DNA from: Bilabrum cf. latius
Taxonomy: Eukaryota
NCBI GenBank assembly: GCA_965178125.1
Contig: OZ237761.1
Location: 310,001 to 374,000 of the forward strand
Reading direction: 5' to 3'
Length of the DNA stretch: 64,000 nt
In this document: piece after piece, positions 4,201 through 58,800 of the stretch
How the letters are laid out: each line of letters starts with the position of its first letter
Position numbering within the stretch: the stretch's first letter is position 1
Position numbers and translations under genes: made by a program
Notes under the pieces: generated by a model
What the model saw: only the letters and a program-made list of their open reading frames with translations
What the model was told of the DNA's origin: nothing
The model's database searches: none

Positions 4201-4949
4201 CCAAGGCCGTGGGCAAGGACGTCAACGAGGCGAGGTCACACGTGAGGAGGCTGCAAGGAGAGCTGGAGGAAGCACAGAGGAACGAAGCAAGGAGAGTTGC
4301 GGCAGAGGTGGCTGATGAAGAATCGAGGCGCGCGGATGGAGGGGCAGGGTCTGGTGACGGTGAGGGCGTGGTGGGAACGAGCGGTCGCGGTGCCGCCAGC
4401 GAGTCAAAGTTTGACCCGACTCCCATCCACCAAGAGATGGCACTGCATAAGCAGACGTACCAGCAAGGGTTCGACCGTCTCCGTGACATGAAGAGAAGAA
4501 TACAGGCGTAGCAGAGGGAGATTGAGGCCCTGACAGCCTCCATCAAGGCGGCCTTCCAGGCGTGGCACGCGCGGCTCGTGCTGCACGTGGCAAAGCACGG
4601 CGGAGTCGCTACTGGGTTGTCTTCAGGCGGCCCGGCTGCCGGACAGTATGGATCGGGTGCTGGCACTGCTGGTTCTACGGTGGCTGGTTCCGTGCCGGGT
4701 TCTGTGCCAAGGTCCACATCAGCATCAACAGGGCCGGACCGCAGTTCTGTCTACAGCAGAGGAATGGGTATAGCTGCTGCATCTGGCACCGGTTCTTCGC
4801 ACAGCGGTACAAGGGTGCAGTCCACGGGAGATGCTGCCGCGGATGCTGATGTGCGGGCTTTCTATGCGGCATCGGAAGCGCTCAAGAAGCAGAGGCAGCA
4901 AGTGGGAGCTACGGGCCGAGGTGGCAGCAGCCGAGGGAGTGGAAGATAA
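1300..4949 (+). CDS. KIF6: Kinesin-9 family motor protein, KIF6-like
   Basis: Motifs [73 protein letters not shown] and [20 protein letters not shown], with a C-terminal [18 protein letters not shown] introns at 1653-1766, 2193-2359, 2399-2516, 2596-2712 and 2804-2931. In-frame TAG at 1609, 2524, 3030, 4002 and 4509. Ends at TAA 4947-4949. Confidence 0.92.
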
Positions 4950-5484
4950 CCAGGTGTTGGTTCTCGACTCATCTGCTGGCCTTCCTGCGAGATGCTCTAG
5001 CAGCCGTATGGCAGTGCATTGCAGAGTGTCCGAAGAGCATGCTCTCGTGGCCTGGAGTGTGATCCGAACCAACGGGACGGGGCGTGTGACCCTGGGTATC
5101 CAGATCAGATATCAGATCCGTTGGTATCACCGCCGCACCCAGGATTCAGACTGCATGAAGCGATGCAGAAACGCTTGAACATACCAGCAACAGCAAGTTT
5201 CATTTAAATACCTACTAGCAGCTGCCTTACGCGTTTCAAATGTCGCGACCTGCACGGAGAAGTCAGGTCAAGCCCACCACCGCCTGCTCCGGACACACCC
5301 CAAGCGGTCAAGACAGCTGCCTACATACATTTTTCTTCAAATTTAGTTAGCCTCAACCCTGTAAGAACTTTGCCAAGCCGTTTCAAAGCATGCTTAGCTA
5401 TCTTCCGCATGCAGTCAAGCAAGACTTTGACACTCCAGATACCCCCTTGCGGCTGGTTGCGGGCAGATGCGCCCAATGTGCTGC

Positions 5485-8400
5485 TTATGGCTGAAGGATG
5501 ACGCTCGTTGGAGGTGATTCGTCTGGGCAAATCGCAGCAGTACCGCTCTGTGAAATCGCTGTGACTTGTAGACCCTCTACATGCTTCGGAGCAGCGCAGG
5601 ATGGAGACAAAGTGGACGGCTTGCCCACATTGCCGGAGTCCCCGCTAGCGGTATCCAGATGCCGGCCGAAAGCTCCAAGTCCGCTGCCCGTACGAGTCTT
5701 GCTGAGTACGACGACAACCACACCTCCGACCAGAATCACAGCAGCGCCCACACTGATCACGGCGAGCAACGAGACTGTGCCCAAGTCATCGTTGGAATCG
5801 TCAGCGTTTGTTTCATGCCCTGATTCAACCGGAGCTGACCTGTTGCCCCGTGCTCCGCCTGTCAAAGAAGCGGTGCTGGTGAATGGGTGTACTCCGGTGC
5901 TAGAAAATGGCGTTCCGGCCGAACAGCTTCCATTGGACGCCCAGTGGTATCCTTGAGGACAATCCAAGGAGAACGTTACCAGGCAGACGAGTGGTTGTGC
6001 CGAGCCTTGGATGCGTGTGCCGCCGCTATCAACGCCAACGAGCTGTACATGCGTGCTGTACTCGCCCGGAAATAGATCGTTCCTGTAGACATGTATGACA
6101 ATGCCTTCACCATCGACATATCGTGCTGTGACGTCAGCGACGCTGAGCAATGTGCTCGGCTGCAAAACAACGCTTCGAACCACCACTTCAGCGCCAACAC
6201 CAGCCACAGACGAATCGGCAGCAGCAATGGCACCCGTGATTCCAGTTGATACGCGAGTGATGTAGCCAGGAATTGGGAGCGATGCGTCTGGATCACTCGC
6301 CTGAAAGACAAAGACTCCGTCCGAGGCTGAAGATTCTGCAATGCTTTGGGATGGGTGCTAAAACACTGGGACGCGCGATGCAGCCGATGCGGTGACAGCC
6401 ACGCTGAACCGCACGAAGCCCTGGTATTGATCCGCGCTGCCGTCCTCAATAGCGAAGAGGCCAATACTGTACTGCTGATCCGCTCGGATGGAAGCGGCTG
6501 CCTGGATCCAAACATCCCCGGTGCTCGCATCCACAGCAAAGAAGGATGCATCTGGATAGGCAGGGTCAAGGGAAAACGTGACTGGAGCACCCAGGTGCTG
6601 CTAGCCAGAGACGCGCGCGCGGGCAACAATCGCACCATCATGCGGGTTGTCAATACGTACGACTTGATCCGCGGTAGGCTCATCGAACTGCAGCACGCCT
6701 CGAGTATTGGCTGGACCGCTGCACGTGGCGGTCGATCCGCCGAATCTGTGCGTCCAGTCCACCGCAGCATACCCCTCACGCCCGTTGCCATGAACGTCAG
6801 AGGATCCTATTGGCCCATCTAAACCCATGCCGTAGCCCAGCGCCCCTCTCATGCTATTCCCATGCAGCGTATAGCCGGGACCATCGCAGCCGAAGCACCG
6901 AACGATCTGTGACTCGGGTCCTCCCCGGAGCTACTGCGCGATGGCACACACTGCGCATCCGTTTCCGTGAATGGAGACTACCTGGTACTCTCCGTAGCTT
7001 TCCACGACCTGCACATTCTCTTGAGAATCTTGGTCAACGATACAGGCAGGTATCTCTGGCTGGCTCAGCAGCGGAAACACCAAAAATATGCCCTGGTCCT
7101 CAGCGGCACTGAACTGGTCGCCGGCCGCTCCGTGACGGACGCACTGTACCTAGTGAATGCCATAGCCCGCAGTGGTGCCCGACACGCACACGCCGCCCTC
7201 AATGACCGCCATTGAGAAAACATGCCCCTTGAAATTGGCGATTACCACTGACCTAAGTGCATCATCCCGGACACTGCCCAACTCCTGCTCGACTATTGGC
7301 ATTACGGCAGGGGCTATGGACGCATTGAACGCATGCCACGCATACGGCATCCGTCCAAAGCAGACGGCATCGTGGCGAGTCACAGAGTCAGACGGGGACT
7401 ATCGCCTTTCGTACAGCACGCATATTTTGTCTGTGCTTCCGTCCACCATGACCGGTGTGCCTGTCTCCCTCCATCTGTCCACCGACAGAGCCCGAAACGG
7501 ATAGGCGATCGCCACGCTCGTGTCAAGCAGAAGCCTTCCAAAGCAATGAATTTCGTGCCCGTGAATACCGTCCAAAATCACGCACGCAGTGTGACGAGCA
7601 AGAGCGACAGTGTGACGAGCCGGGAAGGCATCGTGGGCCCAAAAGAGCGGTGCTGACAGAGGCACGCGACGCTCTGCCATGGGCAGGACAACCCCGCCGT
7701 GGCTGTACTCCTTTCCTGTTCGCTCGATGAATGCGTCGGCCTTGAAGAGCGTCATCTTACCCCAGCACTCCAGGTTTGAGAGCCCGAATACCACGTCTTC
7801 GAGCACCGCGCAGAAATGGTTGGCGCCCGCATAGAGGTGCGCAACAGGTCGGTGCAAAGGGACGCTGAAGCCGGAAGCACTCGTCTAAGACCAGCTAATG
7901 TCTCGCGACAGCGGTGAATCTATAGGGGAACGAATGTGGGTACGGTTGAGACTGGGACGCTCGTACGGTGTGTAGTCCCAGTTGCCCCAGCACCTCACGT
8001 TGCCGTGCTCTGTGCGCAAGCACTGCGTCTGCTGGTCGAAGTCATCGCTAGCGAGGCCGATAACCTGAACCACTTTGCCCTCCTCCGGGGTTGGAACGAA
8101 TGGTATCGGCTCTAAGGCAGCTGCGAGGCCGATGCGGCCGTCGGAATCTCGAAGAGAGGCAGCGACTGCAGCTGGGTAGCCTGACGAGTACCCGCACGTC
8201 GCCTCTTCGCAGTGCCCCCAGCACCAAAACTCACCCGACGTGGAGGTCGCGCAGGAGGCCCCACTGGTACCTACGCTGACATCCTGAATGCTACACGGCC
8301 CTCGTACGTCCGTAAACCTCACTGTCAGGTTCACAACGGCTGCGTTCCCTGCCTCGTCCTACCCTCCGACAGCAAGCTTGTGTTCGTGCGCCTCGTGATA

Positions 8401-8753
8401 CCCCTGGGATAATTCGATGCGACCGGAACTGGAATCTATCGTAAAAATTCGATCCACTCTGCGACGGATACGCTAAGTTTAGTATCTTTGGCTAGCGCGT
8501 GAGCGGTACGGGCCTACCGTTCCCCGACGGTCCAAGGCCCAATCTGACTCTCGTCTCACCCGAAAGCTGAGCCAGACAGAATAGCAAACTATGGATGCAG
8601 CGAATGAATTAAATCGATTGTGCCCAAGCTTATCCGCCCCTACGTTGCGATCACCGAGGTTTCAGTGCTTGCAGTTGCGGTCGGGGTAGCATCCGCAGCT
8701 GAATATGCCGACCCAAGCACTGTCAAGGCCGAAAGCCACAAGATCAAAAGCAT
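5485..8753 (-). CDS. Type I membrane protein with cadherin-like domains and RCC1/BLIP-II-like repeats
   Basis: Signal peptide MLLILWLSALTVLGSAYSAA and an intron at 8459-8559. Cadherin-like motifs: FTIDSSSGRIEL, FFAVDASTGDVWI, PVF.HPSQSIAESSASDGVFVFQASDPD. RCC1-like motifs: VSVGTSGASCATSTSGEFWCWG, LYAGANHFCAVLE..LECWG. TM helix LLAVISVGAAVILVGGVVVVVL. ORF-track pieces 7885-8334, 7399-7857, 7150-7383, 6601-6852 and 5485-6207 are one frame separated only by TAG. Ends at TAA. Confidence 0.75.
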
Positions 8754-10212
8754 TTCTGCAGTGCGTTTGAGGTTGAGCAATGCAAAAAATACATTAGTCG
8801 TTGGTAGAAGTTTAAAAGGCGCGCGTTGCTCCACGATACGCCATTGCGCTCCATTGCAGGATGGCCCCGGCATCGCCTGTAGCAACTAGTCACCGAGTGA
8901 GACCAACAAAAAGTTGTATTTTGGAGCATAACGTACCGGTGGTATTAAAGAGATGCTGCTCACTCTTGAACAATTGTGGATGTTGATGTGAAAAGTGACG
9001 CTGCCGGTAGCGACCAGCGAAGAGCACTGCGGTCGCAACCATTATACGGCAACCGTCCCGCGAGCCACCGCTAGCCACCACTGCGCCACAAGCAATCAAG
9101 AAACATCGCAATGATACCTTCTACATTTACCGCCACAGAGCATACGCCCAAGCACTCGCCTGTCTCGCCCGTCAGCGCCACGAGAGTGCCCTACTGTGAC
9201 CCGGACACTGCGCCTCGCTGCTACGCTCCACAAATGATGGCAGCGTGCAGGAAGCAGCTTGCAAAACACCTCACGCGCAGCGTACAGCTCGGTCCGCCAC
9301 ACATCTGCATAGCACCACCGGCAACACAGCTGGCCCAGTAGTGCTGACGGGTGGTGATGGATCATGATATGTCGCAGCAGCGCGTGCCACATAGCACATG
9401 GACAACTCGCTGGCTACTATGCCCTGTGAGCATGAATAAAGTGTTCTTTCCATTGTGATCGCTACGCACGGGTGCACTGTCCTGAATGGCAGGGACAGCG
9501 ACCAGCCCGTGCAGGGGCTAGTCCAGTCCCCGCAGACCGCCCAGAGGTGATCGCGGAACCAGGTGACCCATGCTCCAACCAAGAGCGATGCTACGCTACG
9601 AATACAAGCCATTGGTCAGGCATAGGCTGAAAGCGCCCTTCCTGGCACTTCAAGAGCTGCTACTCGACCTGTCACGAACCGGCACCCGACGAAGGCAACC
9701 CTGCGTCTGCATCCGGAGGCACTTCAGTGACATGCACAGCAGATTCAGCAGGTACTGCGCTCAACTTCCCGGAGATAGACTTGTTGCTGTCCATTGCCTA
9801 ACCGAGATCCACTGCTGTCCGCCCAAGCTACGCAGCGGCCCTCGTTGCAGCAAACATGCTTTCGGAACTCTCATTCAGCAGTTTCTACTGTCGAATAAGC
9901 GATTCTTTTCCACCTCTTAGTATCAAGGCGTCAGTCGCATCCACAGCTTCCCGCAGTGTTAGCAGTGCGCCAGCTGCGAGCGAGTCCAGCCGCAAGCTAT
10001 ACAAACTAACTCAATGAGGCATCCATTCGCGCTCGGAGCAAGGTAATATTGAACATATACGTATACATTCATGTTTACTCACACAGGACGCGGTCGCATG
10101 GCTTTTCGGACGCCATTTTTTGGATCGGACGCCAGCCAAATGTTTTACAGTGCACTGCAAAATCCATAGATTCCGGGAATTAGAATCTCAATGCTCCTCA
10201 CCCCTGGTCAAG

Positions 10213-11892
10213 ATGATTAAGGCTGCTGGTATTGCCAGTGCATTGCTGTACAATCTTACGTCTAACCTTCCGACCCCTTCATTTGAATAGCAGCTGATTC
10301 TGTATTCGATGCAAGGCCTCTTAAACCGCGATCAAGCATCTCTATTCTATGACGTTGGCAGAGCTGATTTCGACTGGCCTGGAGCTGAGGCGGAATGGGT
10401 GCATTTGCTTGAATCGGATGGTCGCGTTGCGTGGCAGTTGGTCGATGGTGGGCTGTGCGAACTAGTCGAAGCGACTGGAAAGAGGCGATCTTCGCAGTGG
10501 CAAGCTGTGAGGTACGCAGCCAACGACGGTATCGGCCCCTATTTAGCCATGACAGTAGCCGGTTTGGAAGGTTTGCTACCGATTTCCGAAGAGTTCGCTC
10601 GCTCGACGCCCTGCTTGTCGGCAGAACGCGTTCCCGTGGCATACGATTTGCGCGACAAGTATCCTGCAGGCGACAAGTATGCCGGCTTGCGCTGGGGCAT
10701 GGAAACTCTCCTCCCTCGATGCTCCAAAAGCGTGCTATTCAACGCGAACAACTTCACGAACGCTGCCCCGTTCGCCCGAAACGTGACAATCCTCTCAGCC
10801 GACTTCCCCATCGCCAACCGAGCCTTCATCACCAACCTCAACCCACTCGACACTGACAACCAGACGTGCACCGACTGCGATACCGGATACTACCGGCGGA
10901 TCGTTCGATCGAGAGACCCGTTGGTCCGCGTGTTTGGCTGGTCCGACCCCGAGAGCAGCTATACGAACATAACCAGTTAGGAGGGGGGTGACATCTACTG
11001 CACGTTTGCCAGCCCCAACCTGAGTTTCTGGGCCAAGCTCAAGAGGGCAAGCTCTGGGCCGCTGGTATTGCCCCACAACGACCCGGGCACGCAGCTGAGC
11101 GGCTCTAAAACCTACGTCATGTTCTAGACCAATGAGGGTGACACGCCACGCATACTGACGTCATTCATGGCCCGCGGCTGGATCTCGGAACGCAGGGGAA
11201 ACGCTCCCGTGGCCTGGGGAATCGATCCCGCGCTTGCAGACGATTTTCCGGCGCTGTTTGAGCACTACGTATCCACTGCCAGCGGCAACGACACGTTCGT
11301 GGCTGGCGTTGCCGGTGTCGGATACGTATTCCTTGATGCGATGCTTCCCTCTGCCAGGGTGCTGTACGAGAAAAAGGCCGGTGCGGCGCTTGCGTCGCAC
11401 GGCCCCGACGTCATCGACACGTACGGCCACGGGTCGCCAGCGGTGCTGCAGGAGTATCTGGAGAATGCGAGGGCCGGCGGAAGAGGACCAGTCGCTTTCG
11501 TGTCGCAGCCCGGGCCCGCCTCCCAGTTCGGGCGGGCGTCCGGCGTGACGTATTTAAAGGTGGGCGCCGGACAAGCGCCGGTTCCCGTTGTGCAGACATC
11601 GAGGGACCCACGTCTGTTCTATTACCTGAGCGAGCTGAACCAGACCGACCCAGCGGGTGACCTGTCTTCGAGGATACGGGCGGTCGCCGATGCGCAGGCA
11701 CCCACACCGTCCGGTGCCCGATTCATCACGGTGTACGGCGGATTGTCGGCGATTGGTTCTGATGACGACCATTCGATTCCGTTCTTTCCGCTTGTGGAGA
11801 ACGTGACGGCGCGGCTGAACGCTTCGTTTGAGGTGGTCGGAGCGCAGGCGTACGCCAGGCTGGCATCGGAGGCCGGGCGAGGCAGCCTGTGA
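10213..11892 (+). CDS. GxGYxYP-family putative glycoside hydrolase / polysaccharide deacetylase-like protein
   Basis: Motifs MQGLLNR, VRVFGW, SPNLSFW, YVMF[TAG]TNEGDT, RGNAPVAWGIDP and FVAGVAGVGYVF. Intronless, with TAG at 10288, 10978 and 11125. Ends at TGA. Start codon uncertain. Confidence 0.7.
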
Positions 11893-12078: not shown

Positions 12079-15000
12079 ATGTTACACCATATGAGCACTG
12101 TATGTGCTTTCGTTCTTACCATTGGGGCACATGCCATGTTCGAAGACGAGGCAGGTACCATGACATGGGTCCGCGAGCACGTCGGAGTACCAACGAAGAT
12201 GGATTGGTACGAATCAGCCAAGGGTTCCGGGGCAATCGTTGCAACGGACGAGGGTGTTATAGCATCAATGGATCTCCGATCCCATAGCCTGAAGTGGCGA
12301 GCCGTGTTGCCAGAGCGTAAGCCCAAGTATCGGCTCAAGCCAACAGCTGGATCACGAGTTGTGACCGAATTCGCACGGATTCCCTTCGTCGCATGCTGCT
12401 CTCGTATTTCGCAGGCGAGACGTTTACCACGACGGCTGTTACGAAGGGCTCTGTTGTCGCGGCTTCATTCGATAAGTCTCGGGGCGGGTGCACGATTCGA
12501 GCGTACGAGCGATCGGACGGCCGTCTGCGCTGGGACGCCCTGGTGGGAGTAGATATCGGGTCTGAGGACGCCACCCAGTAGCTCGGTGCAGTGAGCATCC
12601 GAGTCGTCGGTCCTGACAAGCCCACTGGCCCCCACAAGGCGCTCGTCACGTGCGGCCCCACGGTGGCGGCGCTGTCACTCGTCACGGGCGATGAGCTCTG
12701 GACTCTCGACCTGGACGACGGGCAGGTTGCAACCGAGGGTGGCCCGTGGGTGGCCCTGGCGGCCGATGCCAACCCCTCAGCTAGCGGAACCGCCGGCGCC
12801 GCGACTCTCCTCGTCGCTGCCGGGCGCCTGGCTCCAGGCACTACTGCCGTCGGCTCCTCCTCCTCCTCCTCCACACCGCTGCTGCTGTCAGCTCGCGCAG
12901 TGGCGATCGAGGTGACGAGTGGAGAGGCCGGTGCCCCCGTCACGATGCTGGAGAACTTCCCTGTGCTGGTCCCGGCTTCGGCCTCGGGGGCAGCGGCAGC
13001 GGCAGTCGTCGCTCGCGGAGCCACTTTGGCGTCCCTCGGGGGGGTTGCCATCGCCGCGATCGGATCGGATGGATCGACCGCTAAGGTTGCAACCGCATCG
13101 GTCGGGTCATCGGGGTCGATCCAAACCGGAACAATGGACGCGTCAGCGGGTCCCGGATCCGAGTCGCCGTTCCGGAGCCTGTCCGTGGTGAGCGGGGCCG
13201 CCTGGGTAGCCCCAGCTTCTAGGGCCAAGGCGGACGGCTGGTCCGCGCACGGTGCACTCATCACACTGGTGCGGTCCGACGGGAGCACCGCAGTCGTGGG
13301 GCACAGCGCCAGAGCCGGCGGGGAACAGGACGAGGGCTCCCCCGCTGCATCCGCCAGGGTGCTCGGGTGGGCTGGCCCCGTGGCTGCCACCGGTGGATCG
13401 AGCGTGCACGTGCCGTCCAAAAACGCGAAGAGTCCCGGGACGCACGGACATCACGCGGTCGAGATGGTCGCCAGGGAAGGCGGCTCTGCGGAATCGACAG
13501 GCGCCGCGCACGCTGCGGTGGGGCTGTCGCTGCTACCGGTGCCTGGTTCGAGCAGCGGCCTCACCTGCGTGGTCTTCTCCCAGGGCGCACCACTGCAAGG
13601 CGATGCACCTGCGGGCGACTCATCTCCCAAGCCCGCGTCACAGGCTCACGCGCTGCACTACCCTTGCGGCGCCGCGCAATCCACTGATGGTTCCGCACAG
13701 CGGCCCGAGGTCTCCAGCCGCCGCTTCCTCCTGCCCGCGGGCAGCACCCGCGGGGCCACCGTGGCGCTGTTCCCCAGCCGCTGCAGGGAACACAAAGGCA
13801 GCAGCAGCAAGTCGAGCGATTGGCTGGATGCTTGGCTTGGGGGGGGCGCTGGGGGCAGCAGCAGCAGCGGAAGCATCAGCAGCAGGTCCCGCCTGTGCGG
13901 CCTGCAGTCGACCGCCGACGGTGCCCTGACCGGCCGTGGGTCCGACGTCCACCACCCCTGGACCTCGGAGGAATCCGTGGGGAGGGCGAGGACCGTGCTG
14001 GCAGTCGAGGCATCACCCACGGGGGGAGTGAGCACGGCCTCTGGCCGCGACGGGTCCAAAGCAGGCCGCGCCACAAGCAGGCTGCATGGCGTGAGGGAAG
14101 AGATCGCAGCGGACCCTGCCCTGAGTTTCAGCGCCCGGATGGGTTCCCAGCTCCATGCCGTCCTGGATGCAACCGCAGCCGTGCAGCAGGCGGCAAGCGC
14201 GGTGGCTGCAGACCCGATGAGCCTCCTGGACGCAGCCTCCTGGGAGTCGTGGGCCTCATCGATCAGCGGGCAGCTCGCAGCGGGTGCGTCCTCGTACGCT
14301 GGCAAGGGCAGGCACACTCGCGAGAGGCTGCTGATTGCAGTGGCACCCCCGCGGCTGCCCGAGAGCGCTGCAAGCCGCGGGATGGCACCGCTCACCGGCG
14401 GGATCGTGGCACTGCTCGGGCGCACTGGTGCCGTGTCCTGGTCCAGGTCGTTCCCACTCGGCGGTGGGGCCGTGCAGGTGCGCGGCGCCGCCGCAGTTCC
14501 GCTGCGGAGCTCGCCCCTGGGCCAGGCGCCACCGGAGATTCTGGTCGTGGAGACTGCATCTGGTCCAGGCACCAGCGGCAAGCCCGTCGTGAGGATGACC
14601 GTTGTGGATGCGTGGAGCGGGGAGACGCTGTCGTCGGCCGCTGCCAAAGGGAAAGCACAGCAGGTCGTGCCACTCCCTGTGGAGGACGAGCACGGCAGGC
14701 AGGCGGTTCTCGTGATCGCGTCCACCGCTACTGCCGGGCAAGATGAGACAGAAGCGGCGGCCTCCTCGCAGGTGGCCTACCTGGTCCCGAGCACGCCCCA
14801 GACCAGGCAGAGACTGGGCGAGATCTCGTCCACACTCGTCATCCATTCCGAGCGTCGCGCGGCGCCCGGTTCCGCGAGCCCGGATTACGTCGACGGCCTC
14901 GCCCTCTCTGGCCCGGCCCTCGATGAGGCCCTCGAGGGGGCAGTGGCCAGCAGGGAGGCGGGGCTGGGCGAGGACGAGCTCCTGGTGACGGGCCCCGTGC

Positions 15001-16178: not shown

Positions 16179-16282
16179 GTGAGGCATATCTAGATTCCGG
16201 ATGCGTGGTTGCCTCGGATCGGATCAGAGGGTGGCTCGCCGTATCCATGGATGTACCCTAGGTGTCCATAGGCCGTCTATGA

Positions 16283-19585: not shown

Positions 19586-19716
19586 GTTGGGGCTAGCATT
19601 TTGCAGCGATATGGCATTGTTCGGCGGCTATAGGTGCAATCGTCATTCGTTGAGACTGTTGACGAGCAGCTGATCAGCAACTTGTCTCACATATAGAGCG
19701 CTTGCTCGGCCAGACC

Positions 19717-42031: not shown

Positions 42032-42334
42032 GAGCAATATGCACATGTTTTTTCGTTCGCAGCTTGTCTGAAATGGATCACACCATACCTAGACATACAT
42101 GACATTGCCAGGCTTTCTCTGGTTTTCTCCAGAAGCGTCCAAGCTGGCCTCGCAACGCATAGGAATGGGCTCTCCGCTTCGCTGAGCCAAGCCCTGCGAG
42201 CGAAGTTCGACCGTGCTGAAATGCCACCATGCGTAGGTATATATTGGTCGCTAGCGTATCGCGTGGTATTATCTGGTGGGCTACTTGTGCGGGCTAGCCA
42301 GCATCTGGCCGAGGAGCCCACGAGCGCATCCGCC

Positions 42335-46579: not shown

Positions 46580-46841
46580 TTCGATTGTTGCGGAGCTCGC
46601 TTGGAGTGAAATATCGACTATGTACGTGTGCTGATAGAAAATGAACATCTAGATGGCATCTGCTTCAAATCTCGAGAACTAGGCCAGTGACACACCCCCC
46701 CGCTACGGTAATAAAATAAATTTATGGGGGACACACATAGGTGCCCATCTGATCCAGTTTCCATTGATTGGCCCTACCTTCGTACCATCGAGACACAGTC
46801 ACGAATGGTGGTGCAGCTTGTGTCCCACATCCCCTGTCTTT

Positions 46842-49800
46842 TTAATCGCGATAACTGCAATTCCGCGACCATGACAGCGCATGCACATTTGCCTCAGGCC
46901 AACCGCTCGGACCAAGCCATGCTGCCTGGGCTTCACGCACGGCAAGCATCGCACTTGACCCGGACAAAATGCCGTCGTTATTCTCCTCAGCGCTGGCTAC
47001 TGCACAAACACGTCGACCACGATGCTTATTCTTGCCGTGAGCCAGTCTACCTCTCTGCCTCTGGATACCCTGTGAGCTATCAAAGGACTGCTACGGCACA
47101 GCAGCACCGGTTTGCCGGCGCATCTACTACAGCACTCGTCCCCGCATTGCCTGAAACGATACAGCATCAATTTTGCCTTGGTTCAGTGCCACGTATGCCC
47201 CCGCAATGCAGTCTAGAAGCGTCTCGAGCTCCACAACCAGTCGATGCTTTTCATGCGAGCTGTATCGAAGATCAATGCGGGTAGCTTGACTTGTAGGCGG
47301 GCCCTACGGCCACATGCTCCTTTTCGCTGACTCAGCCGCCGATGCTGCTGCTGCTGCCGTTGCAACGGTGCCCTTGATACACACGCTGACTGGACCGACT
47401 GAATCTGTCTCCACCTCGCACTCGATATCGCTGTCGCTATCGCTTGATGCATCGTCCCCAAGGCGTTGTGGACCTGCCGACATCCTGGGGTCATACAGTG
47501 GTCCGAGCTCGCTTCGGAGCTTACTCGCGAGAGCCTCGATGCTGACATGCCGTGAGACAAGCCCCTGTCCTAACATGTAACGAGACGAGCGTTCTTTGGT
47601 CAGCTTGAAAACGGCTCGAGTCGCCTGACGCATAGCAAACAGAGAAGCAGCATTAAAAGTGCGGATCCTATCTTTCGCCATCCAAACGACTTGTAGATCG
47701 CCGTGCCAACTTCGAAGCAGATTAAACTCTTTGCTTAGTTGTGAGGGCCGCCACACAATCGCAGGTAATCTAGCTCCATCACCAGCTGAGAGGTCATTGT
47801 ATACCTAGAAGTTTTGCCTGCGAGCATATATCTTGCAAGCTAGCCTGGTAGAATCTTGCAGAGTGCTCGCCAGCATCGGGACGTCAGTTTGCATCTGCGC
47901 TGTTCCAGCTGTGCTGCTCCTGGCTCGGTGGAGGTGCCCGCGCCTTTGCCCTGCTGCAGCATGGCGAGCTCGACTCCGTAGATGCCACAGCAACGATACG
48001 CAAGCACTGTCTCGATCGGTTATCTTGTTGGTGTACTGCTATCCGTCGTGCCTTCTACTACAAATGACAGTACACATCGCGAGAAACGAGGGAAATGCAA
48101 ACCCAGCCATTGCCACTGGAAAGACCCAAATGGATACTGGCATGAAGAGAATGGCACTGCTCAGAGAATTCTTGGATTGATCGGTGGGTGCGAACACCAA
48201 CGAGGTCCCAAATGCAATTGTTCCGATCCAGCTGAGCACCGTGGACGGCAGCGACAGGACTGGCCGGACCATAGCAACCCAGGACCGCATGGGGTTCCAA
48301 TCCATATATCGTACTCTGTACCACCTTGGACACGATCCTTCGCATCCGCAGCAGCTGGCGCACCTCTAGGGCTCACATTGAACGTTCAGGCAGTTAAGGA
48401 CGGTCCTACAGAGGCACAACAAAAAAAGGGTGGACACTGATAGTCTGAGCACTAGGCGAACCACTGTTTCAAGCTCAGCTGGGCTACAAATACCATCCTA
48501 TGCGCAGGCAACTGATATTGCTCCAATGTCAAGTACGGTGCAACCGCATGCGCCTAAAAGGAAGCCTGGAAAGTTCTCTGCCGTCAGGCCTCTCCACAGA
48601 GCGTCTCGACGAGGCACATCATTTGATGAACAACAGCAATAGTAGTCATTCGAAGCCGCAAATATCTGCAAGCAATAAGCAATGGTCTAGTATGCAATCC
48701 CAACCAACAATGACGAGCCTGCGGCTATCCCTGTCCAACCTAGCAAATATAAGCCATCACGATCCGCAGGCAGCCAGTCGTGCTCTGGAATCTGATAAGG
48801 GGCTTGCCATGCCCTTTCAATTCCGACTGCTCCATCTATCTTGCTGGTAATCAATATGTTCCATGCCGGCAGCAACCACAGGCAGAAACAGCAACAGAAG
48901 ACCATAGTAGCGACGTTAAGGATCATGACGAGCCGATGCAAGGCAACAACGGTACTTTGTGCAGAAGCATCAAGCCGCCTAGGGTTCGCTTGTTTAAATT
49001 GCTGTGGAAAATCCATCCAAAAGGCGTTTAGGACATCAGGTGCCTCACCGTTGAGTACCTAGTCATCATCCGAGATAAAAGCGGACTGTCCAACCCACCA
49101 AGGACACCAAAGAATCGCAAATGTAGGTGGTATGTACCCTTGCTGCATACCGCCGCACAAATTCAGTGAATTCGTAGCGCATGTTGCCAGCAGAAGAAAG
49201 AGGGCAATAGTCGGTGCCACCAGAGAACCACTCTAGATCAGAAATGGGCTTCATAGCGTCTTCATAGGTCACTGCCACTGTTTTGTTGTCTGCGTCCCAA
49301 CGCTGCTCGGCGGGGGTGTACACACAGTAGTGCATCGTGCTTGCCATGGTGTCTATGGCAACCGTGCTATTCTCAGTAACGAATGCCGTCACGTTCTCAA
49401 ATCCACTCAAGCCTGCCTCGTGTCGCAGCACTAGCTGGACGCACCCGCGCGGGACGACCCCCCAACACAAGGACGTCATCGCACCAACGATGAAAGTAGT
49501 GGTACATACCATGTGAAACATGTCGGCCGCGCACGTAAGAATGGTGTTGGTCGGGCACCAAGCGTAGAAGCCACGCCCGCAGGACGTTGTCCTGCAGCAC
49601 CAGTGCATCTGACTTCTCAAGCGAGCCAATCCATCATACGAGAGAATCAGCTTGCGCTGAGCACGCTGTATTACTCTTGAACGGCCGTTGGAGCCTATGC
49701 CCATGGCCGTGCGCATCCAACGAGCCGTATGGAGCGCCATACCATCCACAAGACCAGACGAACTACTTACTCCAAGACACCGACTTGTATCTGCGCCTTG

Positions 49801-51123
49801 AATTCCGTTCAACTCACTAATGGCCACTGCCCCGTACTGCGAGCCTGCAGCTTGTGCACTAGCAAGCACCCCATGCGAGTCGCTGGGTGCCGATAATGTC
49901 GCTCCGTAGCAAGCACGAGCTGCGCTACCCCCTAGATCCCTGGCGGCTCGGCCGAAACGCGCGCCTGTTCTCTGTGCAGGACCCTTTGCACTGGCAGGGG
50001 GGTCCAGAAGTGGTGCTGTGACGGCCGCCGAGTCACGCGAGGCCATCAAATCGAACAAATCCCCCTGAGATCCCAACGCTAGCCTTGTCCGGTTTAAACT
50101 TGAATGGACAACTTCACGGGTAGCCTGTGGTGCTGGGCTCCTTGGTTGGAATGAAATGCTGGCTGACTGGGCCTCAACGATGGGCGCCTCCCCTGGTGGC
50201 ACTGGTGTGCTACCAGGTGGCGTCATGAGAATTTTGTTGCGGCTTGATTCTGCAATCACGGACCGCCACCGCTACTCTACGTCCACTTGAAAGCTTGTCT
50301 GTCTATTTTCGTCGCCGCTGTAGCCCTTGCGCCCTGGCCATCTAGTAGATCTGCCAGTGGAGACCTCTGCAGGGGTGGCACACTTCGTCGTCGTCTCTGT
50401 CGACGCTTCGAGCTACCGGTTGCCTTCCGCTGCGCCCGGCGGATCGATCGCCCTAGATCCGGTACTCTGCACTATTGAGTGAAGCTTTGATGATGTATGG
50501 GTGGCCCAAGAGTGGGCTACTTTGAATGAGGCTGCACATGCAACCAGCGTGGCGGCATCGATTAGCTCGTCTAACTGCTTCTCCCGGTCCAAGGCCCCAG
50601 GTGCAGTTTTGTCCGCATCTCCTCGTAATATATTGTTTCCTGCGTGATGCCACTCGTGCAAAGCTCGCAAAAGTGAGCAAACCTCCGGGTTTGCCCGCAG
50701 CGTGGCATACCGTGCCGATCTGACCATGCGAGCCCGAACGAGAGTTGCTTGGTTGAACACAGCGGTAGCTGCATCGCCCCAGGGACGACAAGTAGCTGAA
50801 TGTTCTGTAGCTCTTGAAGCCATGCTTGCTTGCAATGCCGAGGCAATTAAGCGTGATCCTGAAAAATACTAGTGACATTGCTTTGAAGTCACAGCTACTA
50901 GACCAATTTCGGGGAGATCAAAGAACGGCGCGGCGAATGGTAGTATCTCTGCTTTGCAATAGTAAAATTCTGACGATCTTGAGGCTAGACTGGGGCTGTA
51001 CATGCACAGATGGCCCTTGGAAATCGCATTCGTGAAACATTCTCTCACGGCGAATTCGGATCCGGCTTTCGTCTCGGTGGTCATCGCCGCTGGGACGCCC
51101 GGACATAGCTGATGCATGATCAT
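46842..51123 (-). CDS. Unknown Cys-rich multipass membrane protein, paralog 2, with one frameshift near 49225 (pseudogene or assembly error)
   Basis: Pieces 50869-51123, 50413-50835 and 49066-50259 are in one frame. Pieces 48687-49016, 48039-48305, 47805-47993 and 47304-47756 are in a second frame. Each set is linked only by TAG. Ends at TAA 46842. Colinear similarity to paralog 1. Start uncertain. Confidence 0.65.
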
Positions 51124-51325
51124 GCGTCTTTTTCATATCTTCAAGCAAAATGATTCCAATCCACAGGTCCTTTTTTGCGGTGTGGTCTCCCAATTTTCGA
51201 TTGCGTGTGTGCCTCACCGCGACGTCCGTGCGTCGATCGGAGCAACTACGCAAATCCAAGATCTATTCGCTGGCGGTGACATGGACACCATTGAATCGGC
51301 ATGTGCGCAGCTGATGACACTTCCA

Positions 51326-52666
<1,341 letters not shown>

Positions 52667-52987
52667 TTTCGGTTAAACGAATTCTGTGAAATGATTGACT
52701 GCGCCGAGAGCGAATGCTGCGAACGGTTTCATTGGCGAGAAAAGACGCATCGGTCAGTATCGGTGCACGGCAAGATTGCTTGATAGACACCCCGTTGCTC
52801 GCGGCCACAGGGTACAGCAGCATAACGTCAATCAATTTCAGGCAAATTTTAAATCATATCTCACCTCTCTTACTGGCAGTGCCTCCTAGCTACAAATAAG
52901 CGACCGCTGGATTTCGTTGCACTCGGAGCGGCTCGTTGCACGGTTTGGCTGCATTGCATCGACTGCATACAATAACGTAAAAAGTTC
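52667..52987. promoter_or_regulatory. Putative bidirectional promoter between leuB and leuA
   Basis: 321-nt lower-GC spacer between two divergent start codons. Inferred from geometry only. Confidence 0.45.
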
Positions 52988-55507
52988 ATGCTCAGACTTG
53001 CATCCAATATACTTCGTAGGCATGCTGTGAGGCGTTGTATCGTTGCTGGTGGCAGGCAAGGCCAGGCAACTTGGCGACCCTTTTCAACTGCCCAGACCAA
53101 CGAAGCGGACCGCTTGATTGTGTTCGATACCACGCTTCGGGACGGTGAATAGTCCCCTGGTGCTACTTTGACATATAATGAAAAGCTGGCACTGGCTAGA
53201 TAGCTGGCGTGAGATCGTGCTGTGCCGTGTTTGGGCCTTTTCGGGAGCCTCGAGACAGATCTTACCGTTTGGTGTCTTGGTCTGAGCTAAGGTCCCGCAT
53301 ACTGCAGTTGGTATTGCATCAAATGACGATTATTCTTCATCCTACTGGTTGCTGCAATTTACGCGTTCAAAAAGCTCTAGGGCTTGCGTTCGAGGTCGTA
53401 GTCCACTGGTTGGCTGCGCTACCGAAGGGCGCCCCCCACCTCGTTTACAGTAGCTGCGGGCGAAGAATTGCAATCGCTTTCCCTCGCATCGAGGTGCCAA
53501 CTCTCTGTTCGTCAATTGCCCTCCTGCAGCGAGATCGTCTCAACTCTCCCCGTTGTGCCGCCCTACGTACGCAGGCTGCTCGGCGTCGATGTGTGCGAAG
53601 CGGGCTTTCCCATCGCAAGCGACGGAGACTTTGACGCAGTGCGCGCAGTAGCAACGGAAGTCGGGCCCCTGGTAGAGGGCCGGTCGGACGGCACTCCCAT
53701 GAGGATCGCAGGACTCGCAAGGGCACTCCCAAAGGACATTGAGCGGTGCCATGCCGCCGTCAGTGCGGCGCCGGTGCACAGAATCCACACGTTCCTGGCT
53801 ACATCCGACGTGCACCTCGAGCACAAGCTGAAGATTTCACGTCCAGAGTGCATCGAGCGGGCGGCGAACGCAGTGCGTCTCGCCAGAGGCCTCGTTGACT
53901 CTACCACCGATGGGGCGAGGGGCAAGCACGGGGATGTCGAGTTCTCTCCAGAGGACGCTGGCCGGTCAGATCCCGAGTTCCTGGTAGATGTGCTGACCGC
54001 TGTCATCGAGGCGGGTGGGACCACCCTCAACATCCCAGACACGGTCGGATTCGTCACACCGGGGGAGTATAAGGAGCTCTTCGCGCTCCTCCGCGCTCGC
54101 CTCCCGACCGAGTCGCCCATCGACGGCCGACCCATCATCCTGTCTACGCACGCGCACAACGACCTCGGCCTCGCCGTCGCAAACACGCTCGCTGGTGTTG
54201 AAGGGGGTGCCCGGCAGGTGGAGGTGACCATGAACGGGATCGGAGAGAGGGCGGGCAACGCTTCGCTCGAGGAGGTGGTCATGTCGATCCGAACCAGGCC
54301 GGAGAGGTTCCCGGTGCAGGCGCCCCAGATTGACACAACCCGGATCACCTCCACCTCGCGCCTCGTGTCTGCAGTGACCGGTATGGGCGTACAGCCCAAC
54401 AAGAGCATCGTGGGCGCAAACGCATTCGCTCACGAGTCGGGCATCCACCAGGACGGAGTGCTGAAGCACGCCGCAACCTACGAGATCCTCACACCCGAGA
54501 GCGTGGGGCTTGGCCGCAACAGCCTCGTGCTGGGCAAGCACAGCGGTCGGGCGGCCTACAGGCAGAGGCTGGAAGCACTCGGCTTCGGTGGACTCTCTGA
54601 CTCGCAGCTGAACGGATTCGTGCAGCGGTTTAAGACGCTCGCAGACACCAAGAAGAGTGTGAGCGACGCTGACATCCTGGCCATCGTGCAAGAAGGCATC
54701 GATTCGATCGTGCCGCTGGTGCAGCTGAGCGGCCTTCACGTGACGTGCGGCTCGGACGTCAAGCCGACCGCCACGGTGACTGTGATCGAAGCAGAAGGGG
54801 CTGTGGAGGAGGGCGAGGGCGACGGCGGAGAGATGCAGCACTCCTCTGCCGCCATTGGAAACGGTCCCATCGATGCTCTCTTCCGGGCGTTCGGCCTGAT
54901 CCCATGCCTGCCCGCGGCGGATCTGACAGACTTCGCGGTCCGGTCCGTCACGGACGGCCGAAAGGCTCTGGGCGAGGTGACAATCCGGCTGCGCCCGGCG
55001 GAGCACGGCGCCGGCGGGCAGCGAGACCTCTCTGGTCTGGAGGCGGTGAAGGCCTCCTTGGCTGACCCGCACACGGCCTCACCCAGGGACGGGGCGGGCG
55101 ACGACCACGATAGCGCGGCGGACGGGCTGCACAGCGACGACAAGAACTTCGAGGAGGCGCGGATGTCTAGCGCCGACGCGCTCGTGAGGTACTAGCAGGC
55201 AGTGGAGCGCAAGGAGCAGGAGAGGAGGAGGAGCATGGCAGGTGGAAGCGCCGATGCCGCCACCATGCTAGGTGAGGATCCCCTGACGTCAGAGGCGTCC
55301 GGTGTCGGTCTGTCCACCGACATCCTTCAGGCTGCGGCCAGGGCGTATCTCTCGGCTGCGAACCGCCTGCTGCACCGAGGAGTCCCGGCGAGGCGAGAGC
55401 TTGCGCGGCAGCAGGGTACCGCGGTTGACGGCGCGAATGGCGGCGTCGTAGCTGGTGCGCCGGTGTCTGCGAGGCGACCGACGCGTGGGGTCGAGGCTGC
55501 CATGTGA
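52988..55507 (+). CDS. leuA: 2-isopropylmalate synthase with a putative mitochondrial targeting peptide
   Basis: MLRLASNILRRHAVRR...PFST leader, then LIVFDTTLRDGE[TAG 53150]SPGATL..EKLALAR[TAG 53201]LA, intron 53209-53574, then LLGVDVCEAGFP, HAHNDLGLAVAN, GIGERAGNA, AFAHESGIHQDG and GNGPIDA. After TAG 55193 comes the regulatory-domain end GVGLSTDILQAAARAYLSAAN. Ends at TGA. Confidence 0.95.
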
Positions 55508-55822
55508 AACGCCGCAGAGCTCCACGTCCAGGTCTTGTCTCCCGTTTGATCCGGAGTTTTAGGCAGGCCTATCTGTGCATTTGGTGCCTAACTAAGTCAT
55601 GACGGGGAAATGAGATTTACACGTGTGCTTGAGCCAGACTTCAATTTTTTTTCCTGTGCAAGTGTTTAAGTATATCTGGCCCACAGCCTCGTTTCTGATG
55701 GCCACATCCATGCGCATGTGCCCGCAGGGCCGGGTGTGGGCAAGGACCCGTGTCTCCCGTGGCGGCCCAGTGGCTCTGGTCCATCCGATCTTTAGATCAA
55801 ATCCATCCAGACTCTAGACAGA

Positions 55823-58800
55823 TCACCTGCGCTTGCCGCGCCGGCCCCGCTTCTTCTTGCCCCCCGTCCCAGACCCGCTGCCAGCCGTGTGCTCATGAGC
55901 TGCAGATGAACCAGAGCCACTGGCCGGCACGCTGGGATCGGCGGACCCGACCGCGCCAGCCCCGGGTGCGCCCGACCTGCCGCCGGCAACCGACACCTTG
56001 ACCGCCCTTGACTCGCCGCCCTCGGCGTGCACCCACAGGCCGAACGCCCAACGGCAGCTGCGAGCTCGCGGAGTCACCATGAGCAGGCCACCTTGGGGTG
56101 CTGCGGCGGAGGACCCCTCAGCGTTCATGAGCCCGAGGCCGGCAAGCCCTTCCTTCAGCACGGCGGGAAGGGCCTGGGCGTCTGCCAGCAACGCGCTTGC
56201 AGCGCGCAGCACCTCGCGTGCCTCTGCACGCACCGTGCGAATGTAGCCCGCGTGCGTGTCTGCGGCAGCTCGGAGCAGGGAGGCGAGCGCGGCGCCGCTG
56301 CCACCCGCCACCCGTTGCCCAGCCCACGCGCGCGCCGCATCCCGACCAGCCTCACCGCACTCGGCGGGCGCGGGCATCATTTCCAGTGCCTGTTTGGCCA
56401 TATCTACGGCCTTTCGCAGCGGATCGGTCCAGGTGGCCAGAGCTGCACGAGCGGCGGCTTCGTCTGCCGTGCCGTCGCGGGGCGCGTCCGGAGGCCCCAC
56501 GCTCTCCGGTATGGCAGACTCTTTCGTGAATCTCATTTCCATCGCAAACTCGCGGTAGCTCTGCGGGATCCCCTCCAGTCGCGACTCCAGGAGCGGCTCC
56601 ATCCTGCGAGCAAAGGCACGGATGGAATTCCACATGGGCTGCTTGGCCTTGGCGGCACCGCCGTGCCAGGCAGGCAGCCGCATCGCCTCCAGCCAGCCCA
56701 GCAAGCGAGACTGGCCCTGATGCAGGTAGGCCCGCGCCCGGTGGTGCGGGATCCTCCAGTCGGCCTTTGTTGCGAGCTCGATGGCATGCTCGAGCTCCTT
56801 GGCGCCAGGCAAGTGCAGCAGGCCAGAAGAGTGGGCAGCAGACGACCCGGCCGCAAGCTCTGCTCCCGACGACGCCTTTGGCCCAGCATCCGCGGCCACC
56901 TTCCGAAGCGACAGCTCGCTGCGCCGGTCGGTCCAGTCATCCTTGGCCGCTGCTGCAAGCGCCTTGACGGTCGTAGTCACCACGTCTGCATGTCTGTGCA
57001 GCACACGATGCAGGGGCCAAGTCATCCAAACGGCTTCCCTAGGCAGGCACAGCTAGCCCTCCAGAGCGCCCTGAAAGTAGGCCGCGATCATGGAGCTCAC
57101 GTGCTCCCAGCTCCAGGAGCCCATCCTGCGGACGTACACGGGCGCCAGGGCCTCGAGCCTCTCCGCGACGTGCTTCTGCAGGGCGGCCTCATCCACCCCG
57201 CCCTCGCCCGCAGGTGCCGACGACGACGTGCCGCCCCCGCCACCGCCCCCTCGCCGGCCCTTGCGGCCTCGCCGTCCCGACTTGCCCTTGGACGAGGACT
57301 GCTTCGCGGCTGAAGCAGCTGCCGCCGCCTCGGCCGCGGCCTCTTTCGCTGCGACTTCGGCTTCGTCCTGGCCCATGATAGCGTGCCGCAGCTGGAGCCT
57401 GTCTACCACCGAGGGCCAGGGCGCAGAGTCCGGCAGCCGGCGATGCGGCGCGCGGCGAGCGGCTGCCAGCGGATCATCGACCTTGTCGACACCCTCTGTT
57501 GCCGCGGCACCGCCGGACGCACCCTCGCTGCGTCCGGCAGCAGCGGCCTGCGACGGCGCCAAGGGCAGCAGCGCGCGGGCGTCCACGGGGCTCCCGCTCG
57601 GAAGGAATCCGACGACGGGGTTTGCCGCACCTTTCGCGATCAGGTCGTCCACGTACTCTCCTTCTGCAGACACGACGCCCATCTGCTGGGCCCGGATGTC
57701 TGCACGCCGCTGCCTCCTCACGTGCCTCGAGCACGCCTCGTACGCCAGCCACGCGGGCGCAGACTCGGACAGCACGGCGGCGTACTGCTGGCCCTCCTGG
57801 GTGGCGAGCAGCTCCTGAGGGACGCCGTGTTCCCTGGCGAGTGCCTCGGCTACCGCTCGCTTCCCAAGCCAGGGAAGGTTCATGAACCGCCCGTCGCGGT
57901 GGGTGGATCCTGGAATCTTGACCATGCCGGGGCGACCCATCAGCTGAAAGACGCGGCAGCGGGCGTACCCGTCGGCACCGCGGGCCACAAGCTGCGCCTC
58001 GATCACACGCACCGCGGCGGCTCGCACCGCTGCAGGCGCCGCCCGTCTGGCCTCCACAGTCGAAGAGGACGCAGCCGCGTCGCCCTCGATCACCGACGCG
58101 GCTTGTCTCGCCGCCTGCAGCGACGCAAGCGCTCTCCTGATGTCCCTCTGCTGCAGCGCCTCGCTGCCCCTCGCGCACAGCCCAAAGTCCACGAACCCGA
58201 GCAGGTGCACGCCCATTCCACCGGCGGGCACACAAGGCGAAGGTTGCTTGTTGCCAGCGCCGTCCTCGCCGCCGGAGGAAGAGCCCGATGCGCCCCTCGT
58301 GGCAGCCTCCGCCAGGAGCGCGAGGCCGGGCGCACGAGCGTGCGACCCCAACCCGCGGTGGTTCGCGTGCCACCGCAGGAAATTGGGTGCGATTCGGCTG
58401 CCGGCACCCAGGCTAGCCCCCTGCTGTTCTAAATCGCCAGCGCCCTCCATCGCCTTGTCGTCCGGGAGCGGCGGCACCGGGGTGCTATCGATGGCGGCCA
58501 GCTGCTCCGCGTCGGCATTGCGCGGCCGCACGGCAAAGTCCACCGTGGCTGGCGCGGGGAGCAGGGCGGGCCAGCTGGCCTCGGAAGGGGGCGCGTGGCT
58601 CGGGCCGTCGGACTCTGCCGCCGAATCATCGTCATCGTCATCATCACCACCAGCGGCGGCGGCGGCACCAGCACCAGCACCAGCGGCGGCGGCAGAGGAC
58701 GAGGAGGAGGAGGAGGAGGAGGAACCTTCGGAACCGCCCGAAGCCAACTGGCCCGCGCTGCTCCGAACCGCACCCACAGCGGACGCAAAGCCGCCCCGTC

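Follow-up and report, generated by a model that had tools for sequence, protein, structure and literature searches.

UAG as a glutamine codon beside UAA and UGA at gene ends in a 64-kb stretch of GC-rich eukaryotic DNA

The 64-kb stretch of DNA analysed here (the window) very probably comes from the nuclear genome of a eukaryote that is GC-rich (about 60%) and poor in introns, and in which UAG has been reassigned to glutamine and the stops are UGA, which is preferred, and UAA, a code equivalent to NCBI table 15. The change is common to at least two related organisms and is hence very probably fixed across a small clade. Expressed, conserved genes use UAG as sense, and the residue it corresponds to is glutamine; UAA and UGA do not occur inside genes and are present at gene ends. 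A preliminary description of this DNA had claimed that UAG is decoupled and means glutamine while UAA and UGA still terminate, and this claim is borne out by LeuA and LeuB alignments, by internal repeats, by protein fragments of relatives and by a count of zero in-frame TAA. The sample is this one window with 14 genes, whose features are listed below in window positions.

2928-4949, plus strand: last large exon of a kinesin-9-like gene, with Pfam matches to the end of the kinesin motor and to the KIF9 domain; 3 TAG; TAA at 4947-4949.
5485-8478, minus strand: cadh, a membrane protein without a Pfam match, in which C-W-G motifs recur; 8 TAG; TAA at 5485-5487.
10018-11892, plus strand: GxGYxYP-family protein (Pfam); 3 TAG; TGA end; open reading frame (ORF) bounded by TGA on both sides.
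12321-16178, plus strand: EMC1 homologue (Pfam); 1 TAG; TGA end.
16283-19642, minus strand: HAD-hydrolase-like protein (Pfam); 13 TAG; TGA-to-TGA ORF.
20062-20331, plus strand: small ORF or last exon of 89 residues, coding score +0.13; TGA at 20329-20331.
20662-31299, minus strand: giant tandem-repeat surface protein of 3545 residues; 11 TAG; TGA end.
33894-41465, plus strand: cyclic-nucleotide phosphodiesterase (PDE) of 2523 residues; 10 TAG, none of them in the catalytic domain; TGA end.
41564-46595, plus strand: transcript of TM1515, a membrane protein of 1515 residues; GT..AG intron at 41970-42062; 16 TAG; TGA at 46577-46579.
46741-49250, minus strand: ORF of TM802, a membrane protein of 802 residues; 11 TAG (10 after the first ATG); TAA at 46842-46844.
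49066-51132, minus strand: ORF of 688 residues; 3 TAG; ends in TGA TGA.
51326-52666, minus strand: LeuB (3-isopropylmalate dehydrogenase), 446 residues; TAG at codons 220, 261 and 275; TGA at 51326-51328.
52916-55658, plus strand: transcript of LeuA (2-isopropylmalate synthase, IPMS); exon 1 at 52916-53208, intron at 53209-53574, exon 2 at 53575-55658.
55635-61042, minus strand: Ala/Gly-rich protein of 1739 residues; 4 TAG; TGA at 55823-55825; RNA-like contig reaching 55635.
61878-61949, plus strand: tRNA-Pro(CGG), found with Rfam; not a suppressor.

When TAG is read as sense, the longest ORF of the window grows from 1909 to 3545 residues, and ORFs of at least 300 residues add up to 28,529 residues instead of 15,343; reading TAA as sense gives just 17,100. 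Across the 16,554 codons of the 13 long ORFs, eight of which carry Pfam domains, there are 86 TAG, no TAA and no TGA in frame, and glutamine codons together with TAG make up about 4% of these codons. For these ORFs the two shifted frames give counts of 124 and 104 for TAG, 32 and 43 for TAA and 317 and 374 for TGA. Because start codons are unfixed for most genes, a few of the 86 TAG near the 5' ends of ORFs may be non-coding. In LeuA and LeuB, TAGs precede conserved catalytic parts of the protein. The LeuA coding sequence starts at 52988 and runs for 718 codons to a TGA at 55505-55507, with TAG at codons 55, 72 and 614; two TAGs previously counted in this ORF turn out to fall in the intron, and exon 1 carries two others.

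Contigs of sequencing run X5 skip GT..AG introns, whereas the DNA run X1 does not, and X5 depth ranges over 8 to 108 from one gene to the next, against a flat 15.8 for X1. X5 is treated here as RNA-like solely from its spliced contigs and gene-wise depth, its automatic label being 'RNA? (probably DNA)'. Over the TAG-bearing ORFs the X5 contigs show 0 differing letters relative to the window, and all 16 TAGs of TM1515 are unchanged in its RNA-like contig; identity in spliced contigs indicates that TAG is unedited. The probability that the in-frame TAGs are an artefact, whether from pseudogenes, misassembly or editing of the RNA back to CAG, is negligible, and no point in its favour was found. 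Against it, the X1 DNA matches the window letter for letter over these ORFs, as do the spliced X5 contigs, TAG positions are common to relatives at 64-92% identity, and the protein identity of 78-84% to the metagenome relative L001 persists downstream of the TAGs. Cross-species variants in the aligned reads comprise two differing places, both from a paralogous contig and neither informative on TAG sites.

LeuA provides the most conserved position. Its codon 55 TAG corresponds to the Q of the DTTLRDGEQ motif in all three solved IPMS chains, and its codon 72 TAG aligns with Q in two of the three. L001, with amino-acid identities of 84% for LeuA and 78% for LeuB, has CAA, CAG and CAG at the three LeuA TAG sites and AGA, CAG and TAG at LeuB codons 220, 261 and 275, so that CAA or CAG stands at four of the five sites where a TAG of the window aligns with a sense codon. 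The LeuB stop of L001 is also TGA, and opposite one TAG of L001 the window has GCG (Ala). Within the giant repeat protein, six copies share an identical 24-residue context in which four have TAG (residues 329, 537, 727 and 1107) and two have CAG (residues 917 and 1297).

Other relatives extend this pattern. A cadh relative, P0128, has Q at TAG443, and relatives of TM802 have Q at TAG370 and S at TAG615. Among close relatives with a sense residue at a TAG of the window, Q occupies six of eight sites (LeuA three times, LeuB 261, TM802 370 and cadh 443), the other two informative sites having R/K and S. Fragments of close relatives predicted with the standard code (n = 10, 64-98% identity) end exactly at a TAG of the window in five cases, at a CAG of the window in four and elsewhere in one; the terminating codon is seen as DNA for L001 only, and for the others TAG is inferred. 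Three TM802 fragments end exactly at TAG154, TAG448 and TAG674, and P0002 ends at LeuB codon 261. Three fragments end at CAG codons 130, 341 and 526 of the kinesin gene, and P0126 (77% identity to cadh) ends at CAG996, two residues before the stop; since it ends early at a CAG of the window, its own true stop is unseen. L002, a second metagenome locus (41% identity), has an unrelated LeuB and was left unused.

It has been described for the rhizarian exLh, Scotinosphaera and some ciliates that a reassigned stop codon can specify another residue, and relatives do have R, K, S, T or P opposite some TAG sites of the window. It is nevertheless extremely improbable that UAG here means Leu, Glu, Ser, Tyr or Lys. 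The R, K, S, T and P sites are variable columns, and the sole invariant column (RDGEQ) has Gln; Gln is found at six of the eight informative sites, four of the ten fragment ends fall on a CAG of the window, and TAG and CAG alternate in identical repeats. No Leu, Ser or Glu was met at a TAG in a conserved column: conserved columns have Gln, with a single S at a variable site. T, P and a second S come from three TAG sites aligned with P0127, a homologue at 48% identity that was set aside as evidence on glutamine because it is too distant and its columns are too variable.

The gene ends point to UAA and UGA as the stops. The 14 gene ends comprise 11 TGA and three TAA, and none needs TAG. All 13 stops of the preliminary description are found in place, namely TAA at 4947, 5485 (minus strand) and 46842 (minus) and TGA at 11890, 16176, 16283 (minus), 20329, 20662 (minus), 41463, 46577, 51326 (minus), 55505 and 55823 (minus); the TGA at 49066 (minus) adds an eleventh. 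The earlier statement that no TAA occurs in frame also holds, with 0 in 16,554 codons. If TAA were a glutamine codon as in table 6, kept rare simply by the high G+C content, 22.7 would be expected from the 86 TAG and the CAA/CAG ratio of 123/465. Codons ending in A are indeed under-used (the same ratio, and a GC3 of 0.53-0.79), and of the three stop triplets TAA occurs least often in the window (160 + 171 times). However, in a set of seven gene ORFs delimited by TGA at either end, and so defined independently of TAA, 9,956 codons contain 53 TAG and 0 TAA where 16.3 TAA are expected; in the other gene ORFs TAA is found at the extreme ends only, whereas it is scattered internally in antisense ORFs and present in the shifted frames. 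The sequence past the kinesin TAA, moreover, scores as non-coding, the coding score falling from +0.16 to -0.15 over the next 183 codons. A table 6 code is therefore very improbable, and UAA is best read as a stop.

Homology had been said to fix the C-termini of KIF6, EMC1, LeuA and LeuB. This stands for EMC1 and LeuB, both of which end at TGA, and does not stand for LeuA or for the kinesin, which moreover matches Pfam KIF9 instead of being KIF6. In EMC1, the match to the EMC1_C profile (5-214 of 214) ends one residue before the TGA, so that the C-terminus is fixed by homology. None of the three TAA gene ends is fixed in this way. Past the TAA the coding score goes from +0.01 to -0.09 for cadh and from -0.04 to +0.04 for TM802 and is uninformative for both, and a search for C-terminal fragments of relatives returned none for the kinesin or TM802. 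The cadh and kinesin genes are convergent with 535 nt between them. The RNA-like contig of TM802 ends 101 nt past its TAA, before the next in-frame TAA or TGA; such contig ends are a weak hint of 3' ends, which are unmapped by raw reads, and inspection of four contig ends by eye for a poly(A) signal gave no common motif.

Context-dependent reading of UAR or UGA is described for Condylostoma and Blastocrithidia. By analogy, UAG might be glutamine inside genes and yet act as a stop close to the 3' terminus of certain mRNAs. A TAG does come shortly before the final TGA in three ORFs (residue 1513 of 1515 in TM1515, 2516 of 2523 in PDE and 1103 of 1119 in the HAD-like protein, or 2, 7 and 16 codons before), where termination at TAG and at TGA would be indistinguishable, and the RNA-like contig of TM1515 ends at 46595, merely 16 nt past its TGA. 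On the other hand, none of the 14 gene ends, a small sample, needs TAG, and EMC1 and LeuB, whose C-termini are fixed by homology, stop at TGA and have no TAG close by. The same pattern in Iotanema was settled as pure reassignment (PMC5304391, available text). A context-dependent code is thus unlikely, and plain reassignment of UAG to glutamine is the preferred reading.

The code itself is known already from Iotanema and some ciliates; it is a rare, catalogued variant, of which the window provides a further member. The available text of PMC5304391 gives UAG as glutamine and UAA and UGA as stops in the fornicate Iotanema spirale, which thus shares with the window the codon table, an abundance of UAG inside reading frames at Gln positions, a lack of UAA and UGA inside them, and gene ends in UAA or UGA. 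UAA is the predominant stop there (same text), whereas in the window it is TGA (11 of 14). The organism of the window also differs from Iotanema in being GC-rich and in carrying LeuA and LeuB, and the window is genomic DNA while the published Iotanema data, as far as that text goes, are a transcriptome. Ciliate macronuclear genomes are AT-rich and have very short introns, whereas the window has about 60% G+C and introns of 93-366 nt. UAG alone has changed to glutamine, with UAA still a stop as in the window, in two phyllopharyngean ciliate lineages and in Protocruzia tuzeti, by independent and recent origins (PMC11687900, accessible part).

Both UAA and UAG mean glutamine (table 6) in many ciliates, ulvophyte green algae, Hexamita, Streblomastix and Amoeboaphelidium, according to the accessible parts of PMC11687900 and PMC5304391. 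The likeness lies in the conversion of a stop to glutamine through a mutated tRNA-Gln, and the difference in UAA, which is unreassigned in the window (0 against about 23 expected). UAG is leucine in the rhizarian exLh (PMC5304391) and serine in Scotinosphaera (PMC11687900), again in the text available; these non-ciliates, too, have separated UAG from UAA and have UAA or UGA at gene ends, but the amino acid differs from the glutamine of the window. Code 15 of crAss-like and other phages is the same formal table; in the sources as available, however, phages recode late genes in bacteria, whereas the window has cellular eukaryotic genes with spliceosomal introns. A literature search, of incomplete coverage and thus no proof of unpublished status, found no published UAG = Gln in a GC-rich eukaryote outside ciliates and fornicates, including in the available text of PMC5304391, PMC11687900 and PMC6733595.

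In a quick LeuB tree of 41 rows (the window and 40 of the 120 listed matches, picked by name or rank), the LeuB of the window has a long branch (1.12), lies in no starred clade and groups with no named lineage. The presence of a kinesin-9 gene suggests that the organism is probably flagellated. We tentatively propose, at just short of an even chance, a previously unreported, independent origin of UAG = Gln with UAA as a stop in a GC-rich, leucine-prototrophic, kinesin-9-bearing and probably flagellated clade of at least three species outside ciliates and fornicates, with TGA and not TAA as the main terminator.

By precedent, UAG may be read by a tRNA-Gln(CUA), one anticodon change from tRNA-Gln(CUG), which would pair with UAG and not with UAA, and the N-domain of eRF1 may have lost efficient recognition of UAG while keeping that of UAA and UGA. 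A tRNA-Gln(CUA) derived from tRNA-Gln(CUG) and an altered eRF1 have been proposed for Iotanema (PMC5304391, available text). Within the 64-kb window, an Rfam search gave nothing but tRNA-Pro(CGG), the sole tRNA gene there, and no eRF1 gene is present.

UAA and UAG nearly always change together, and just a few nuclear lineages are exceptions (PMC11687900, available text). Each new independent case tests the ideas that a tRNA with a CUA anticodon makes the capture of UAG alone easy and that the constraint sits in eRF1. Standard-code gene callers cut the proteins of this organism at every TAG; since fragments of its relatives' proteins in databases break off exactly at a TAG or a Gln position, both this genome and those of its relatives need annotation with table 15. 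If the origin is independent, this lineage, for which both genomic DNA and RNA data are available, would offer a tractable means of studying how a single eRF1 separates UAG from UAA; one could also examine whether UAG can be freed for capture by GC pressure instead of AT pressure.

The G+C content of the 64-kb window is 60%, and both of its strands are dense in long open reading frames (ORFs), with frequent convergent pairs. The presence of long ORFs, Pfam families and spliceosomal GT..AG introns identifies the window as eukaryotic nuclear DNA. Gene identities were assigned via Pfam, and a single tRNA gene is present:

2928-4949, plus strand, kinesin-9-like gene (Kinesin and KIF9 domains)
10018-11892, plus strand, GxGYxYP protein
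12321-16178, plus strand, EMC1
16283-19642, minus strand, HAD-like protein
33894-41465, plus strand, cyclic-nucleotide phosphodiesterase
51326-52666, minus strand, LeuB
52988-55507, plus strand, LeuA
61878-61949, plus strand, tRNA-Pro(CGG)

Five other long ORFs of the window have no Pfam family, and the eRF1 gene is not among the genes of these 64 kb. A long (GA)n microsatellite lies in frame within the HAD-like ORF and encodes about 30 Ala-Gly repeats.

The preliminary description had proposed that UAG is decoupled from UAA, UAG encoding glutamine and UAA and UGA both remaining stops, and the stop positions on which it relied are all correct in the window. Gene ends are TAA at 4947, 5485 (minus) and 46842 (minus) and TGA at 11890, 16176, 16283 (minus), 20329, 20662 (minus), 41463, 46577, 51326 (minus), 55505 and 55823 (minus); a further TGA end lies at 49066 (minus). 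Thus, 11 of the 14 gene ends are TGA and three are TAA, and none requires TAG. When TAG is read as sense, the longest ORF grows from 1909 to 3545 residues, and ORFs of at least 300 residues sum to 28,529 instead of 15,343 residues, as compared with only 17,100 when TAA is read as sense. Thirteen long ORFs (16,554 codons) contain 86 TAG, no TAA and no TGA in frame, and the two shifted frames of the same ORFs contain 124 and 104 TAG, 32 and 43 TAA, and 317 and 374 TGA. Because this ORF set had been bounded using TAA as a stop, the count was redone with TGA as the sole stop. Seven gene ORFs running from TGA to TGA (9,956 codons) have 53 TAG and, again, no TAA; in the other gene ORFs TAA is confined to the extreme 5' or 3' ends, and in antisense ORFs it is scattered in the interior. 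If TAA were a second new glutamine codon, used as CAA is relative to CAG (123/465), 22.7 would be expected in the 16,554 codons and 16.3 in the seven TGA-to-TGA ORFs. These results confirm that UAG is decoupled from UAA and that TAA is absent in frame, and a code in which UAG is glutamine and UAA and UGA are stops is well supported.

Four independent lines of evidence, namely a LeuA motif, the codons of a relative, repeat copies and the ends of relatives' protein fragments, agree that TAG is glutamine. TAG codon 55 of LeuA occupies the Q position of the DTTLRDGEQ motif, which is Q in all three matched solved isopropylmalate synthases, and TAG codon 72 aligns with Q in two of the three. The divergent LeuA-LeuB pair, intron position included, recurs on L001, a 4145-nt metagenome contig of a relative, where LeuA shares 84% and LeuB 78% of its amino acids with the window protein. 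The L001 codons that align with the three window TAGs of each gene are CAA, CAG and CAG in LeuA, and AGA, CAG and a shared TAG in LeuB; one TAG private to L001 aligns with a window GCG. In the 3545-residue repeat protein, the same position is TAG in four of six copies and CAG in two, within an identical 24-residue context. Ten database proteins of close relatives (64-98% identity) are fragments because they were predicted with the standard code. Their ends coincide exactly with a window TAG in five cases (LeuB 261 and 275; residues 154, 448 and 674 of the 802-residue membrane protein), with a window CAG in four (residues 130, 341 and 526 of the kinesin; residue 996 of the cadherin-like protein) and with neither in one. 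Since glutamine codons and TAG together make up only about 4% of codons, these ends cannot be due to chance. Among the eight window TAG sites with a sense residue in a close relative, six have Q, and the other two, with R/K at LeuB 220 and S at residue 615 of the 802-residue protein, are in variable columns. At three more TAG sites a homologue with 48% identity has T, P and S; it was considered too distant to carry weight.

The fragment ending at CAG of kinesin residue 130 is 98% identical to the window protein, suggesting that near-identical strains or alleles differ between CAG and TAG at this codon. The repeat protein itself is a single ORF (20662-31299, minus strand) with tandem repeats of about 190 residues (at least six copies) and about 413 residues (three to four copies). 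It also has linkers rich in Asp and His, an EGF-like part rich in Cys and a single transmembrane helix close to the C-terminus. Because the copies are nearly identical, the repeats may have been recently expanded or homogenised.

The TAG codons of LeuB (220, 261 and 275) fall midway through the Iso_dh domain, and the conserved C-terminal half follows downstream. Contigs of the run X5, labelled "RNA? (probably DNA)" by the analysis software, skip two GT..AG introns (41970-42062 and 53209-53574, the shorter flank being 255 nt in each case) that are retained in the DNA run X1. The depth of X5 ranges from about 8 to about 108 across neighbouring genes, and that of X1 is flat at 15.8. From the intron skipping and the gene-wise depth shifts, we infer that X5 is cDNA-derived. 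X5 contigs show no differing letter over the 1515-residue membrane protein gene (16 TAG), the 802-residue membrane protein gene, LeuB, LeuA and part of the gene for the 1739-residue Ala/Gly-rich protein. Therefore, if X5 is indeed cDNA-derived, the TAGs are present in mature RNA and unedited. The LeuA gene model is likewise corrected by the splicing: two of the raw ORF's TAGs fall in the intron, and exon 1, with the coding sequence starting at 52988, adds two others.

Several local features were also noted. The X5 contig of the 1515-residue protein gene stops 16 nt past its TGA (46577-46595), and the other three contig ends seen are 101-190 nt past the stop. CT..AC joints (GT..AG on the minus strand) flank LeuB at 50949-51048 and 52717-52864, one upstream of its ATG and the other 277 nt downstream of its TGA, and reflect either UTR introns or read-through into the next gene. 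At 55124-55217, in the 3' part of LeuA, a second contig with 11 differences and a 3-nt insertion is found in all four runs, being 40 kb long in the DNA run, which suggests that a diverged second copy or homeologue exists at another place in the genome. The 688-residue ORF (49066-51132, minus) and the 802-residue ORF (46842-49250, minus) share about 185 nt, read in different frames, and their junction is crossed unspliced by RNA-like contigs of equal depth (about 8). A relative's fragment begins at a Met aligned with residue 45 of the 802-residue protein. The two ORFs represent either a single frameshifted gene or a pair of genes packed very closely together.

As for termination, the TGA of EMC1 lies one residue past the end of the EMC1_C profile, and that of LeuB lies where homologues end, the LeuB genes of the window and of L001 both ending at TGA no more than two codons apart. 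In three genes a TAG precedes the final TGA by 2 to 16 codons, where stopping at TAG and at TGA are not distinguishable. Beyond the TAA of the kinesin gene, the 183 codons that precede the next TGA have an in-frame coding score of -0.15, down from +0.16; the averages are +0.22 for in-frame and -0.20 for off-frame windows. The RNA-like contig of the 802-residue protein gene ends 101 nt past the TAA, before the next in-frame TAA (+40 codons) and TGA (+59 codons), although contig ends are a weak hint. A relative's fragment of the cadherin-like protein ends at a window CAG, two residues ahead of the window TAA; it stops before its own true stop, and would fit an L-Q-P-stop end in both species. Statistically there is a good case that TAA terminates, with only three gene ends, none fixed by homology.

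The codon table of the window corresponds to NCBI table 15. UAG-only reassignment to glutamine has been reported in Iotanema spirale, Protocruzia tuzeti and two phyllopharyngean ciliate lineages, to leucine in a rhizarian and in ciliates, and to serine in Scotinosphaera (PMC11687900; PMC5304391). A tRNA-Gln(CUA) together with an altered eRF1 has been argued for Iotanema (PMC5304391). By extension from that case, it is plausible that UAG is read here by a tRNA-Gln(CUA), one anticodon change from tRNA-Gln(CUG), which would read UAG and not UAA, and that eRF1 would no longer recognise UAG. UAA predominates as the stop in Iotanema (PMC5304391), whereas TGA is the main stop here. The window organism also differs from the reported UAG-only cases in its high G+C, in a gene content with LeuA, LeuB and kinesin-9, and in having at least two relatives that appear to share its code, the source of L001 and one or more organisms from which the Logan-derived fragments come. 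A quick LeuB tree places the window on a long branch with no lineage; the nearest named LeuB proteins among the matches listed, at 52-53% identity, are from oomycetes, Sphaeroforma and Vitrella. A literature search, which is no proof of absence, found no description of such an organism. The finding adds to the UAG-only codes already reported without introducing a new principle, is of real interest to students of code evolution, and matters for annotation.
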